The notes under the pieces are model-generated. The model was not told where the DNA came from. It searched no databases and saw only the letters and a program-made list of their open reading frames with translations. A program made the position numbers and the translations under genes. 64,000 nucleotides of DNA from a virus (lineage: Duplodnaviria > Caudoviricetes): positions 96,001-160,000 of IMG/VR virus record IMGVR_UViG_3300031420_000495. One strand, 5' to 3'. Shown piece after piece: positions 21,609 through 29,978 of this stretch. The number at the start of each line of letters is the position of its first letter. Position 1 is the stretch's first letter.

Positions 21609-22448
21609 TTACCCTTTGTTGTTGAAGCGCGAACGCTCTTGCATCCGTTCCTCGAGTGTCAGGTGCCGGCCAGTGCGTTCGGTGTAGTCCGCGGCCGGAT
21701 CGTAGTGGGTCGTCTGCTCGATGCTGGACTTGCGGCCGATTGCAGTGGCTCGCATTGTATCCATTTCGTGAATGACTTCTTCTTCTTCCTCGGCGCTGTA
21801 TTTGCCGTATTCATCGTCAGGCACACCGAACCGGGTGTTGACGTACGAGATGACGTGCTGCACAGTGAAGAGGCGTTCAGCATCGCGATCCGAGATTTCG
21901 AACTCGAACTCGTCTTCGACGGCCATGCACAGCTCGACCAGGTCCAGCGAGTCGGCGCCGAGGTCTTCCACTAGTCGCGCATCACGCACGACATCGCTTC
22001 GTGCCAGGCCAAGTTGCTCCTGGATGATCTTCATGCATCGTTGCGTGATGTCATGAGATTCGCCAGTCGGTTTGGCAGTTTCGGATGCGGTCTCGTCTTC
22101 TTGGGCCTGTGCTGCGATGCGAGCTTGGTCGCCGCTCTGCACCGTAGCCCACTTCGAGTTCTTGCGTTCGAACTCGGACAGGAACAGTTCCAGCACTTGC
22201 TTCTTGGAAAGTTCCGGATGCGCGTCGACCAGGATGGCCAGTGCACATTGTACCACGTCGGCGACTTCGCCGGACAGCGGTTCCTTCATCACTTTGTGCG
22301 TGATGTAGCCTTGATGGATGTTGACACACTCGGCGAGTTCGCCGACTTCTTCCATCAGCTTGCCCAGCTTGGCGCCGAGTGGTTTGATGTCGGTACCGGA
22401 CAGACGATGGACATCGCCGAATGATTGTGCGAACGTTTGTGTTTTCAT
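21609..22448 (-). CDS. MazG-like NTP pyrophosphohydrolase fused to acyl carrier protein (ACP)
   Basis: KLMEEVGELAE..EVADV (MazG); IIQEQLG..LVEDLGADSLDLVELCMAVEDEFEFEISDRDAERLFTVQHVISYV (ACP, DSL serine). Confidence 0.9.
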   Translation of the reverse strand: MKTQTFAQSFGDVHRLSGTDIKPLGAKLGKLMEEVGELAECVNIHQGYITHKVMKEPLSGEVADVVQCALAILVDAHPELSKKQVLELFLSEFERKNSKWATVQSGDQARIAAQAQEDETASETAKPTGESHDITQRCMKIIQEQLGLARSDVVRDARLVEDLGADSLDLVELCMAVEDEFEFEISDRDAERLFTVQHVISYVNTRFGVPDDEYGKYSAEEEEEVIHEMDTMRATAIGRKSSIEQTTHYDPAADYTERTGRHLTLEERMQERSRFNNKG

Positions 22449-24244: not shown

Positions 24245-24458
24245 TGATTTTTCCTATGAGCCAACCGATTAACAAACCAGCGAGCACGATTGTGTTGAGC
24301 CCTGGCATCAGGGCAATAAAGCCGAATGGCGCAAGGTATCTCGGAAGTCTCCAGTTGTTCTCACGCGTTTCGTATATGATACCACTTAGTATGGCCAAGA
24401 AGGAAATCAAATACGCGATCACAAACCACATGCTGTCCCTATAAAAAGAGACTCGCAC
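24213..24458 (-). CDS. Membrane protein
   Basis: Two TM helices; start uncertain. Confidence 0.55.
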   Translation of the reverse strand: MRVSFYRDSMWFVIAYLISFLAILSGIIYETRENNWRLPRYLAPFGFIALMPGLNTIVLAGLLIGWLIGKINELRRRKTHS

Positions 24459-24475
24459 CTTTCGATGCGAGTCTC
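24448..24475 (-). terminator. Intrinsic terminator
   Basis: GAGACTCGCA..TGCGAGTCTC followed by T5 on the minus strand. Confidence 0.8.
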
Positions 24476-24491
24476 GACGTTGACAGCTTAT

Positions 24492-26003
24492 TTAGGCGAT
24501 GTTGGCCAGTGCGATACGCTTCCAGATACGTTCTTCACGACCGCTGTTTGCGACTTGCACGATGTTCAGCAGCGAGCGAGTCGTGATTTCGTTGGCCATG
24601 TCGCGGTTCTCGTACAAGAAATCGTAGGCTTTCTGCTTGACTTCCATCGAGACACCCGGAGCAAAATCATCGCTCGGCAAAATCTGACGCATACGCTCGA
24701 ACGTTTCTTCGATCGTCAGCTCGATGTCAGCACGCAGCGAGCGGCTGATCAGCGGTTGCGGGAATTCTTCCGACGACACGTTCGAGATGAAGATCACGCG
24801 GCCTTCGAACAAGAAGCGCTTCGGCAGTCCGCTGTTGTCGGTGCCTTCGACATTCCACGTGATCCAACGATCTTCATCGCTGTCCAGTGCTGCTTTCAGA
24901 ATGTTCGCGCCGACTTCGTTTTTCCACGCTGCATCACAGTCATCGAGCACGACCAGCTTGCGGCGGTTTTCGAACAGCATGCGGAACAGGCCCTTTGCCG
25001 ACGAATAGCCTTTCACATAGTGGTAGTCGCCGTCAAGTTCCGGAGCCAACTGCATGTCGGTCGTGTCCATGGTGTGATACCGTTCTGCCGGAATCTGGAA
25101 CACGGTCTTCATGATCTTGCACCATTCTTTACCGTGGCCAGCTTTCACTTTCAGCGATTTAGGGAAGAGGATCGACTGAATGTGGTGGGCCATTTCGTGC
25201 GGCACGACGATGTCGTAGTATTCTTCCGGATTCTGCACAGCCAGCTTGATGTTGAACTCGTACTTGTTCAGGCCAGTCGTGAAGCGGCCGCCGCAGACGC
25301 GATCGCTCAGTTCTTTCGAAGTGTGCAGGCTCGTGAAGTCGACCTTGCTCCAGGTCAGCTCCAGTTCGTCTTCTTCTTCGTCGTCTTCATCATCTTCCAG
25401 CTCAGGCACGTCTTTCTTTTTCAGAGGCTTGATCGGCGGATGTTCTTTGTAGTATGCTTCAGCTTGACGCTTGCATTCTTTCATGCGACGCAGAATGTTG
25501 TCGGCGACGACTTGTTCTTCCGGCGTCAACGTGTACGCGATCTTCTCTGCTTCTTCAGTCGACAGCAGACCACGTTCTTTGAGTTTTTGTTTGGTGTGGA
25601 AGGTTTTGCCGAGCGAGCCGTCGCCGGTGATAATCAGCGAACGAATGCCGCTGTCAACGTCCGCGACCAGATCGACGCATTCGTCGAGCAGTTCGTAACG
25701 TTCAGCAACCGGCAGCAGATTGTTCGGCTTCAGACGAACACGCTCGCCAGCCACGAACTTCGGCGACGGAGCGAAGTTTGCCGGAGCGCCGACAGCAGGT
25801 TTCTTCGGTTCAGCAGCGGGGACGTTGTCGAAGTCGGTCACGCCGAGTTCAAGAGCACGGGCGCATTCGCCAGTGCGGAGACGTTTGATAACGTACTTGC
25901 GCGAGTTCGGACCGCCTTTGGATGCGATCAGAGTTTCGCCTTCATACTGAGCAGACCAAGTCGAGGTGGCTTCGTCGTAGCAGAGAGTAGCAAGTTTCGT
26001 CAT
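24492..26003 (-). CDS. AAA+ ATPase with an inserted SprT-like zinc metalloprotease domain
   Basis: Walker A GDGSLGKT; VVPHEMAHH..GHGKEWCKIM (SprT); Walker B LVVLDDCD; FEGRVIFISN; SRS arginine finger. Confidence 0.85.
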   Translation of the reverse strand: MTKLATLCYDEATSTWSAQYEGETLIASKGGPNSRKYVIKRLRTGECARALELGVTDFDNVPAAEPKKPAVGAPANFAPSPKFVAGERVRLKPNNLLPVAERYELLDECVDLVADVDSGIRSLIITGDGSLGKTFHTKQKLKERGLLSTEEAEKIAYTLTPEEQVVADNILRRMKECKRQAEAYYKEHPPIKPLKKKDVPELEDDEDDEEEDELELTWSKVDFTSLHTSKELSDRVCGGRFTTGLNKYEFNIKLAVQNPEEYYDIVVPHEMAHHIQSILFPKSLKVKAGHGKEWCKIMKTVFQIPAERYHTMDTTDMQLAPELDGDYHYVKGYSSAKGLFRMLFENRRKLVVLDDCDAAWKNEVGANILKAALDSDEDRWITWNVEGTDNSGLPKRFLFEGRVIFISNVSSEEFPQPLISRSLRADIELTIEETFERMRQILPSDDFAPGVSMEVKQKAYDFLYENRDMANEITTRSLLNIVQVANSGREERIWKRIALANIA

Positions 26004-26036
26004 TTTCGTGTTCCTAGTTGTTTAGCCGATGTAAAG

Positions 26037-26065
26037 ATTATACACGCGACTGCGCAATAAGCACA
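26037..26065 (-). promoter_or_regulatory. Promoter TGTGCT-N17-TATAAT
   Basis: Read directly. Confidence 0.78.
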
Positions 26066-27471: not shown

Positions 27472-29052
27472 TTATACTTGAACCAAGAATGCTGAACCAG
27501 TTTTGTCTGCTGGTGCAAACGGAATTGGTGTGCCGAACGCACGTGCGCCAGCGGTTCCATACGTGGTAGCGTCAGAGATGATTTCAAACCTGACGGTTGT
27601 CGTACCGCTAATTGCACTGCCAGCAGCAAGAGCGATTGTCACCGACAGCGAGGTTGCAGTAGGCGTCGAACCAGTTACAGCCATAGATGCTCCACCGAAT
27701 TGTTGCAGCGGCACCAACGTTTGAGTTGCGGTAGTTCCACGAAGACCAACGTTTGTTGGTGTGATGCTGAACCTCAACGGATAGACATTGGCAAAAACAC
27801 GAGACTTGTCAGCTGTCAGTCGGAGAACACCAACGTTGTTCAGCAGGTTCTTCAAGTCAATGTCAGCCGGTGCCATTGCACCTGTTGGAATGTGGGACAT
27901 CGTAATCTGGACTGCGCCACCAGAATTCAGGAATGTAAGCAAGTCAGCATTGGTTGCGAAGTTAAAACGCATCGTGATGGTTTCAGAAGTTGCACCTCCT
28001 GGCGATCCGCTGAATGTTGCAAGCTGTGCAATTTCAGTTGATGGTGCGAAATCCGGATTCGTTCCGCTTGCTCCGCTGATACCTTTCAGCGAGTAACGAT
28101 TTGCAACTGCAGCTGTCAGCACGTTGTACGTTTCAGTGAATGCGCGAATCAGAGTCACGATACCGAAGCGGCGGTTCGAGCGACGTTCAAGTGAAGGATA
28201 GCGTACATCCGTTGCTGGCAATGTTGTCAGTGCTGTTGGCGCTGGTCGACCGTCGGAGACAAATGGCACAGGTGAAATATCATCGAGCATATTTGCTGGA
28301 AGGTCGAGACGACTGACTGCGTAGCGAGCAGCAGACAGAAGCAAATCCCAGTCAGTTGAAATAGGATCAACTTTCAGTTCAGTCGCAGAGTCTGTGGTTG
28401 GTACCAGCACATTGGCATCAGGGCTTGCTGCATGTTTAGCAAGTAAGTCAGCATCCAGTGTTGTGAGGCTTGTCAAGTCCGGAATGTTCTTGCCGATTGC
28501 TGCAGCACCACCATTGCCAGTTGAGCCGATCAGCTGGAAGACCATGGTTGCAAGCACATCGTATTCTTCACGTCCTGCAATCGTTTCGATTGGCGGCCAA
28601 ACCTGATTCCATCCGCCGATTGTCGAGCCAACAACCGGGTGACGACCAACTCCGGTGTAGACGTACATGATGCCCGAACGGGTACCGGTCTTTTGGAACC
28701 ATACGTCACCGACTGCTGCTGGCGATGGTGCATTTGCGCCGACGCCTGTTACTTGAACACCGCCGAGAGATTTCCATACGAGTGGAGTTGTCGACGTGCA
28801 AACCTTCATTGTGTTTTCGTTCGTGTCAAACCAGCTTTGACCGACTGTCGGATAAAGCGGTGCAGCACCGTCTGCAAAGCTTTCGAGCAGACGCATGAGG
28901 TTTTCTTGTTGAATGCTACCGTATCCAGGCGCACCTTTACCGGTGAAACGGAGTGATGCTTTGTTCGACACGACCGCGCCGACTGGAACGTTGATTGCCG
29001 CTGCCTTGTTTGCGTTCAGCGCAGGGTTCTTCCAATTAAGGATATATGCCAT
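27472..29052 (-). CDS. Virion structural protein (baseplate/tail-associated)
   Basis: YGSIQQENLMRLLESFA..P..PTVGQSWFD pattern typical of jumbo-phage baseplate/tail proteins; TAAATA at about 29117. Confidence 0.65.
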   Translation of the reverse strand: MAYILNWKNPALNANKAAAINVPVGAVVSNKASLRFTGKGAPGYGSIQQENLMRLLESFADGAAPLYPTVGQSWFDTNENTMKVCTSTTPLVWKSLGGVQVTGVGANAPSPAAVGDVWFQKTGTRSGIMYVYTGVGRHPVVGSTIGGWNQVWPPIETIAGREEYDVLATMVFQLIGSTGNGGAAAIGKNIPDLTSLTTLDADLLAKHAASPDANVLVPTTDSATELKVDPISTDWDLLLSAARYAVSRLDLPANMLDDISPVPFVSDGRPAPTALTTLPATDVRYPSLERRSNRRFGIVTLIRAFTETYNVLTAAVANRYSLKGISGASGTNPDFAPSTEIAQLATFSGSPGGATSETITMRFNFATNADLLTFLNSGGAVQITMSHIPTGAMAPADIDLKNLLNNVGVLRLTADKSRVFANVYPLRFSITPTNVGLRGTTATQTLVPLQQFGGASMAVTGSTPTATSLSVTIALAAGSAISGTTTVRFEIISDATTYGTAGARAFGTPIPFAPADKTGSAFLVQV

Positions 29053-29171: not shown

Positions 29172-29978
29172 TTACGAACCGGTCTGCAGGAGTGCAGGCT
29201 CTGTAGTTCGGAATTCATGTCGCGTCGCTTTTTGCGGAGCAGCGGTACGACCTTTCTCCGTCTGACGAGGGTCAGGGGAGTCCAGATGGCGGAGGATGGT
29301 TTGAACAATTTCAGAGCGAACGACGTCCTTGTTCTTGAACTCGATCACCTGAATCTCATTGGAGCAGCCACGCAGTTTGCGCGTAACCCACTCGAGCCCG
29401 TTCTCAGGCACACCACGGAGGTCTGACTGGGAACCATCGCCGTTGACGGCGAATTGGGAATATTCACCAATACGTGTGACGAACAGCTTCATTTGTTCGA
29501 TTGTTGTGTTCTGCGCTTCGTCGAGAATCACGTAGCAGTTGGTGAATGTGCGTCCACGCATATAGGCAAGCGGAGCGAACTCGATCTTGCCATCTTCCAA
29601 CAGCTTCTTCGCCATTGTTGGGCCGACCAGGTCATTCAGTGCATCGAGCAGCGGGAGCAGATATGGGGAGATTTTCTCTTCGAATGTTCCTGGTAGGAAG
29701 CCGAGAGATTCGCCAGCCTCGACGATCGGACGAGTGATGACGACTTTTGAAACTTCATTTGTCAGAAGTTTATCGACGGCAATAGCCATCGCGAGGAACG
29801 ACTTACCAGAACCAGCTGGACCGGTGCCGATAGTCAGTTTCGAATGTGTCAACGATTCGATGTAGAAACGCTGAGAATCGTTTTTCGGTGAAGGACGTAC
29901 TTTGAGTCGAATGGCTTTTGTTCCTTCTGGGTTAATCGGTTGTGGATATTTCTGTTTTGACAAAGCATGTTTTCCCAT
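29172..29978 (-). CDS. phoH: PhoH-like ATPase
   Basis: GPAGSGKS, LGFLPG, YMRGRT, LDEAQN, GDGSQSDL. Confidence 0.95.
   Translation of the reverse strand: MGKHALSKQKYPQPINPEGTKAIRLKVRPSPKNDSQRFYIESLTHSKLTIGTGPAGSGKSFLAMAIAVDKLLTNEVSKVVITRPIVEAGESLGFLPGTFEEKISPYLLPLLDALNDLVGPTMAKKLLEDGKIEFAPLAYMRGRTFTNCYVILDEAQNTTIEQMKLFVTRIGEYSQFAVNGDGSQSDLRGVPENGLEWVTRKLRGCSNEIQVIEFKNKDVVRSEIVQTILRHLDSPDPRQTEKGRTAAPQKATRHEFRTTEPALLQTGS

Follow-up and report, generated by a model that had tools for sequence, protein, structure and literature searches.

A 503-residue protein in which a SprT-like zinc protease domain is nested inside an AAA+ ATPase is encoded by a 64,000-nucleotide stretch of viral DNA (the window; bases 96001–160000 of the 257-kb IMG/VR virus record IMGVR_UViG_3300031420_000495). 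The gene lies on the minus strand at positions 24492–26003, stop codon included; its frame is free of stops and its N-terminus is conserved with homologues. The source was taken to be an uncultured giant (jumbo) phage, since an identical protein is also found on a 375-kb contig. With moderate confidence, we read the product as a functional giant-phage enzyme, a clamp-loader-like AAA+ ATPase of the NrdC.10 family that has acquired a SprT-like protease in the loop between helix α1 and strand β2. Because the residues needed for both chemistries are conserved across three divergent lineages, it is probably an active zinc protease regulated by ATP.

The inserted SprT-like zincin domain, together with its N-terminal helices, comprises residues 148–325 (25029–25562; this and all other coordinates within the gene refer to the minus strand). 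The Pfam family PF10263 matches residues 227–310 with an E value of 3.4e-10 and 40.2 bits, against a curated gathering cut-off of 25.6; a search of all six frames of the genome to which the window belongs gave 43.8 bits, one copy and no second SprT gene. The NCBIfam SprT model PRK04860 also matches the insert (E 2.9e-14). Against the NCBIfam equivalog NF003421 the score is 53 bits for a cut-off of 175, with only profile positions 55–122 of 170 covered; as this is far below the equivalog cut-off, the assignment is one of membership of the SprT family and not of orthology to Escherichia coli SprT. The sequence HEMAHH, which the sequence-only reading had placed within a full SprT domain, is found at residues 269–274 (25182–25199) and includes the HExxH zinc-binding and catalytic motif (H269, E270 and H273; 25185–25199). 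It is followed by GHGKEW at residues 289–294, whose H290 (25134–25136) is the third putative zinc ligand and aligns to the EGHGPEF of SPRTN. Across the 48 aligned sequences that carry the insert, neither these four residues nor H310 vary. The pattern VPHE[VI]AH..HG..W..M..YH is shared by phage SprT-like proteins of 149–193 residues that stand alone, and the nearest cellular relatives of the insert are enterobacterial SprT proteins (39% identity over about 70 residues).

Structure prediction supports the SprT fold. The insert matches zincin folds, the nearest solved ones being minigluzincins and human SPRTN; the latter is its best Foldseek match and its sole sequence-profile match in the PDB. 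A direct search of the whole protein against solved structures gave only chance-level matches. Small stand-alone SprT-like models in the AlphaFold database align to residues 158/163–312/319, with template-modelling (TM) scores that reach 0.86 depending on the hit. Since these models cover that whole range, the acidic run at residues 188–215 (25359–25442; 14 Asp or Glu in 28 residues, with low predicted local distance difference test (pLDDT) values) is a disordered loop inside the SprT domain, and not a linker preceding it as had been proposed. The helical segment listed alongside that linker does exist, at residues 161–187, but belongs to the SprT domain as its N-terminal helix and is not a separate part. 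Acidic runs also occur in relatives, and the isoelectric point (pI) is 8.0 for the SprT core and 4.1 for the neighbouring loop. The insert is a complete SprT-like zinc protease domain and apparently an active one.

The Walker A and Walker B motifs are 216 residues apart, in agreement with the more than 200 residues expected from the sequence-only reading, and the insert of about 175 residues falls between them. The check that had been suggested, an alignment to phage AAA+ relatives without the insert, places it precisely: more than 70 such relatives and the T4-type NrdC.10 proteins align to residues ~100–147 and 326–498, with a loop of only 10–30 residues in between, and in NrdC.10 of phage RB6 just seven residues separate the two aligned stretches. 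An alignment of 10 insert-bearing and 11 insert-less relatives shows a clean insertion in a short variable loop, located between α1, which follows Walker A, and β2. The protein is thus a variant of the contiguous architecture typical of the NrdC.10 family.

Such a site might be occupied by a selfish element, either intein-like or recently mobile, or by a SprT domain that is catalytically dead and only structural, and the fact that the loop tolerates length variation in insert-less relatives speaks for this. We nevertheless regard it as highly improbable. No Hint or homing-endonuclease family of Pfam matches the protein, SprT alone being matched, and the insert junctions, which read RGLLSTEEA and APELDGDYHYV, have no Cys, Ser or Thr at the upstream side and no His-Asn followed by Cys, Ser or Thr at the downstream side, as had already been noted from the letters of the sequence. 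The intein explanation was rejected on these grounds. Furthermore, the HExxH..H residues are invariant in the 48 sequences, which represent three divergent lineages, and both the sequence identity retained by the insert and the ATPase tree, given below, argue against a selfish or dead element. Chimeric assembly and frameshifting were also rejected as explanations.

Independent metagenome assemblies contain 46 further insert-bearing proteins with 55–85% identity to the window protein, all of them with PF10263, and several insert-bearing relatives are on contigs of 140–373 kb. The same design is found in a divergent cluster representative (P0123, 446 residues) and in gp429 of the cultured Ralstonia phage RsoM2USA, which is 32% identical end to end and is the only insert-bearing example among 50,697 phage records. 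On an ATPase tree computed with the insert columns removed, the insert-bearing proteins require only one change of state (with weak support), compatible with a single origin of the insertion. The mean pairwise identity among 46 close relatives is 60% for the SprT core, 81% for the AAA+ core and 33% for the acidic loop; judged by these values, the insert is constrained, less so than the motor, and under purifying selection. The nested architecture is inherited and not an artefact. Two insert-less proteins, P0088 and P0125, group near the insert-bearing clade on the tree, and P0088 (locus L005, 6001–7065) has a poly-Asp/Glu stretch at the very loop into which SprT is inserted in the window protein. 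Either the acidic loop is older than the insertion, or P0088 and P0125 have lost the protease.

The AAA+ core is divided in two by the insert. Its first part, residues 96–147 (25563–25718), is built of helix α0, strand β1, the Walker A motif and α1. Walker A reads GDGSLGKT (residues 127–134; 25602–25625, exactly where it had been located earlier), and K133 is a lysine in 119 of 120 relatives. The core resumes at residues 326–428 (24720–25028) with strands β2 to β5. The Walker B motif LVVLDDCD (residues 350–357) had been recognized correctly but positioned a few bases off, at 24940–24957; it lies at 24933–24956, its residues D354, D355 and D357 are invariant, and it aligns to the LDEAD of RFC5. 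Sensor-1 Asn408 (24780–24782) and Arg421 (24741–24743), the latter within an SRS sequence and a candidate arginine finger, are conserved in 120 of 120 relatives and align to the sensor-1 Asn and the SRC sequence of RFC5, respectively. A helical lid, residues 429–503 (24495–24719), contains the candidate sensor-2 residue Arg476. All the AAA+ motifs are therefore intact, including sensor-1, the arginine finger and the sensor-2 Arg of the C-terminal lid, with K133, D354, D355, D357, N408, R421 and R476 invariant or nearly so across the 120 relatives.

The ATPase belongs to the family of T4 NrdC.10. The corresponding profile, PHROG 1250, matches in two stretches (E 1.4e-38), positions 134–321 of its 327 falling on residues 325–498, and a BLASTP alignment to the 322-residue NrdC.10 of RB6 (E 6e-16) covers the Walker A region and residues 326–498. 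The family is very large, with 2816 clusters at 50% identity for E ≤ 1e-3, and in the one paper that the literature search yielded (Virol J 2006, PMC1524935), T4 nrdC.10 is described as a conserved open reading frame (ORF) with a weak AAA match and nothing more. One metagenomic member of 813 residues, P0143, consists of two tandem NrdC.10-type AAA+ modules in one chain, without SprT. When a profile was made of 144 insert-less members, its first match was RFC5 (E 5.4e-5), in an alignment that sets DDCD on DEAD and N..SRS on sensor-1 and the SRC arginine finger. By sequence profile, the ATPase thus appears closest to the RFC subunits of clamp loaders, a placement that only the profile favours; the structure leaves the AAA+ clade unsettled, with MoxR, dynein, ClpA, RFC and ORC tied within about 2 Z units. 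A KG[YF]S[ST] element is found at the position of pore loop 1, and its residue 333 is aromatic (Tyr or Phe) in 103 of the 120 relatives.

The combination of a SPRTN-like core with an ATPase recalls the eukaryotic pair formed by SPRTN and p97, and the protein might be a viral, single-chain counterpart of it: a DNA-activated protease removing covalently or tightly bound proteins from phage or host DNA, such as crosslinks, topoisomerase or nucleoid adducts, or DNA-bound defence proteins. The SPRTN matches of the insert point in this direction, as does the profile likeness of the ATPase to RFC subunits, which act on DNA. The precedent itself is documented, p97 unfolding substrates for SPRTN and assisting it in vitro (PMC9127365). 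In addition, one insert-less relative has other gene neighbours, among them one for a UvrB-like helicase, of DNA-repair type. On the other side, although the protease core resembles that of SPRTN and Wss1, the DNA-binding element that adjoins it there is missing by sequence. The insert contains neither the Zn ribbon of E. coli SprT nor the Zn-binding subdomain of SPRTN; its core has about 105 residues and two cysteines, with no Cys cluster, and it ends some 10 residues past the last conserved His. No basic region is seen except for a short disordered linker at residues 61–95 (25719–25823; pLDDT 44–58, pI 10.4), which is poorly conserved. The whole protein is acidic (pI 5.3), the acidic loop would repel DNA, and minigluzincins, which are not DNA-dependent, fit the fold equally well. 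The DNA-bound targets put forward by the sequence-only reading find no backing in these features, and we consider a DNA-directed protease of this kind unlikely. Even more doubtful is the broader proposal that the NrdC.10 family as a whole would be a protein-remodelling ATPase acting on DNA-bound proteins, with the SprT branch as a one-polypeptide equivalent of p97–SPRTN that strips or degrades proteins stuck on DNA. To our knowledge, no ATP-driven single-chain protease for DNA-stuck proteins is known from bacteria or phages.

Several observations weigh against the interpretation of the protein as an ATP-regulated protease. The second acidic residue of Walker B is an Asp (DD) and not the usual catalytic Glu. 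The closest profile relatives of the ATPase are clamp loaders, that is, switches rather than unfoldases, and the aromatic residue at the pore-loop position is absent from the T4-type branch. No DNA-binding subdomain was detected by sequence, the immediate neighbours of the gene are small ORFs without family matches, so that the context points to no target, and the predicted model has a predicted TM score of 0.73, which makes the relative placement of the domains moderately confident. The single-chain protease/unfoldase suggested earlier is thus retained in part: a motif-complete AAA+ ATPase and a SprT domain do occur in one chain, whereas the RFC-like profile, the DD Walker B and the T4 branch devoid of the aromatic temper the idea of an unfoldase. 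The action early in infection on host defence or nucleoid proteins that was suggested along with it is speculative.

For an NrdC.10-family enzyme with an acquired SprT-like protease, the reading that we favour, the following mechanism can be envisaged. The ATPase modules would form an oligomer whose assembly depends on ATP. The α1–β2 connection of an AAA+ fold lies across the sheet from the nucleotide, so that the SprT domains, hanging from this loop opposite the nucleotide site, should decorate a face or the rim of the oligomer, and the ATP cycle could shift or expose them there. Through ATP binding and hydrolysis, a protein target may be engaged or remodelled, or the access to the zinc site gated, upon which the target would be cut; the motor could act either as a threading unfoldase or as an ATP switch. 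The acidic loop may be an auto-inhibitory or a DNA-mimicking element. The target would most likely be a host or phage protein met in the infected cell.

The gene is flanked by putative expression signals. A promoter-like TGTGCT-N17-TATAAT with an extended -10 (TGTATAAT) is located at 26037–26065 on the minus strand, 34 nt upstream of the ATG, as anticipated by the earlier assignment of the gene to its own TGTGCT-class promoter. TGTGCT-N17-TATAAT has 2 exact matches for 0.01 expected and TGTATAAT has 7 for 0.49 expected. Five minus-strand sites, at 2237, 26037, 33452, 51801 and 61301, share TGT(G/A)C(A/T)-N15/16-cgTGTATAAT-N6-CATC, and this recurrent motif probably represents one temporal class of phage promoters. 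A reading of the upstream element as a MotA box (TGCTTA within TGTGCTTA) was dropped, the other four sites having TGTGCA or TGTACA and the spacing being 15 nt. A Shine-Dalgarno-like AGGAA (26011–26015, minus strand) precedes the ATG by 7 nt, and an intrinsic-terminator-like hairpin with a 12-bp stem and a T run (24448–24475, minus strand) is found 17 nt past the stop codon. With the promoter-like motif upstream and the strong terminator downstream, the SprT-AAA+ gene appears to be transcribed as a unit by itself.

A separate promoter motif of sigma-70-like type would suit a host-takeover or counter-defence protease, in which the ATPase recognizes and remodels a specific host protein, for example one of defence or proteostasis, and the SprT domain cuts it. 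Jumbo-phage SprT-like and ArdC-like zincins, which are patchily distributed, probably target host proteins (Iyer et al. 2021, PMC7824862), and the distribution of the present design is patchy, RsoM2USA being its single representative in the phage records. We consider this a possible, if tentative, explanation, since the PADLOC defence models gave no match and the conserved neighbours provide no hint of a target.

The neighbourhood bears on another alternative, a chaperone-protease for virion assembly or maturation that would process phage structural proteins. A block composed of ClpP, a 120-residue protein, PhoH, a 526-residue protein, small ORFs and the SprT-AAA+ gene is kept in two related giant-phage contigs. 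The 526-residue protein (27472–29052, minus strand), whose position is conserved in relatives at a size of 530–549 residues, weakly matches virion structural PHROGs (E ~3e-4), and for the jumbo phages of group 2.2 a pair of a MoxR AAA+ ATPase and a vWA-metallopeptidase has been proposed to act in assembly (PMC7824862). However, the structural-protein matches are marginal, the SprT-AAA+ gene has a promoter-like motif and a terminator of its own, and T4 NrdC.10 is encoded in the nrdC–tk accessory block, at a distance from the genes for structural proteins. A role in virion maturation is, in our view, improbable. The remaining assigned members of the block, both on the minus strand, are the PhoH-like ATPase (29172–29978; PF02562, E 3e-74) and the phage ClpP (30695–31405; PF00574, E 6e-36), for which no ClpX- or ClpA-type partner was matched among the few neighbouring ORFs scanned. 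Nine flanking ORFs yielded only the weak virion-protein match and a fusion, in one 279-residue protein (21609–22448, minus strand), of a MazG-like pyrophosphatase (phrog_1247) with an acyl-carrier-protein domain (PF00550, E 8e-10), so that no partner gene emerged from them.

The remaining part of the protein is its N-terminal β/α domain (residues 1–60; 25824–26003), which is common to insert-less giant-phage relatives. A structure search of the ESM Atlas with the N-terminal 95 residues returned only weak small-domain neighbours with TM-scores of ~0.4–0.55, a DUF2188-like one at ~0.5 among them. On the opposite strand, a 531-residue open frame (24465–26060, plus strand) spans the entire SprT-AAA+ gene. 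All the family and homologue matches concern the minus-strand product, which was the frame searched. The GenBank record of RsoM2USA likewise has an antisense 'hypothetical protein', RsoM2USA_428, annotated over gp429 (L001, 3953–5266, minus strand). Both look like shadow ORFs and not genes; as with the frame in the window, the RsoM2USA one is presumably spurious.

Both building blocks, a SprT-like zincin and an NrdC.10-type AAA+ ATPase, are known, and we came across no description of their nested fusion in the literature searched. Relatives are labelled 'hypothetical' or 'SprT-like domain-containing' in GenBank/NCBI, and the jumbo-phage survey mentions SprT-like peptidases with no ATPase context (PMC7824862). 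In the sense of 'guilt by association', the fusion gives a clue to a very large orphan family of phage ATPases, to which T4 nrdC.10 belongs, as it suggests that the family handles proteins, and the cultured RsoM2USA, with the same design, offers a tractable entry point. If the reading is correct, a protease within the motor domain, and not after it, would represent a new topology among ATP-dependent proteases; provided that the two activities are really coupled, the protein would make a compact model for the control of SprT-type proteases by an AAA+ motor.

Compared with known systems, the window protein has the motif set of the T4 NrdC.10 family (GK[ST], DDxD, N, SRx and R), but T4-type and other members are contiguous ATPases of 280–355 residues, without the SprT interruption, and its N-terminal domain, shared with giant-phage members, is unlike that of the T4 type. 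Gp429 of RsoM2USA (AVH85357.1, 'hypothetical protein') aligns over 99% of the length and keeps HEVSH and HGKEF, although it is shorter (461 residues) and does not have the long basic linker. Bacterial SprT (PF10263) is of the same protease family as the insert and has the same motifs; the E. coli protein, however, ends in a Zn ribbon, whereas the insert is embedded in another domain and contains an acidic internal loop. As in SPRTN or Wss1 with p97/Cdc48, a SprT-type zincin core is paired with an AAA+ ATPase, with the difference that the eukaryotic partners are two proteins that meet via SHP/VIM motifs and ubiquitin, and that p97 is a double-ring unfoldase of the classical clade while the window ATPase is RFC-like and lacks a Zn-binding DNA subdomain. 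The fold matches include the ATPase domains of FtsH and Lon, which likewise carry ATPase and protease on one polypeptide, in FtsH with an HExxH zinc site too. In these enzymes the protease comes after the AAA+ module and builds a chamber beneath the ring; the window protein, which has no Pfam match to Peptidase_M41 or Lon_C, ends with the AAA+ lid, and its protease is nested between α1 and β2. A precedent for a large domain between the Walker A and Walker B motifs of an AAA+ fold is the I-domain of HslU, which is also among the fold matches, with alignments that span the insert. This I-domain, which is helical and handles substrate, has no enzymatic activity and is placed in a different loop, and the protease of HslU, HslV, is a separate protein, whereas in the window protein the protease is part of the same chain.

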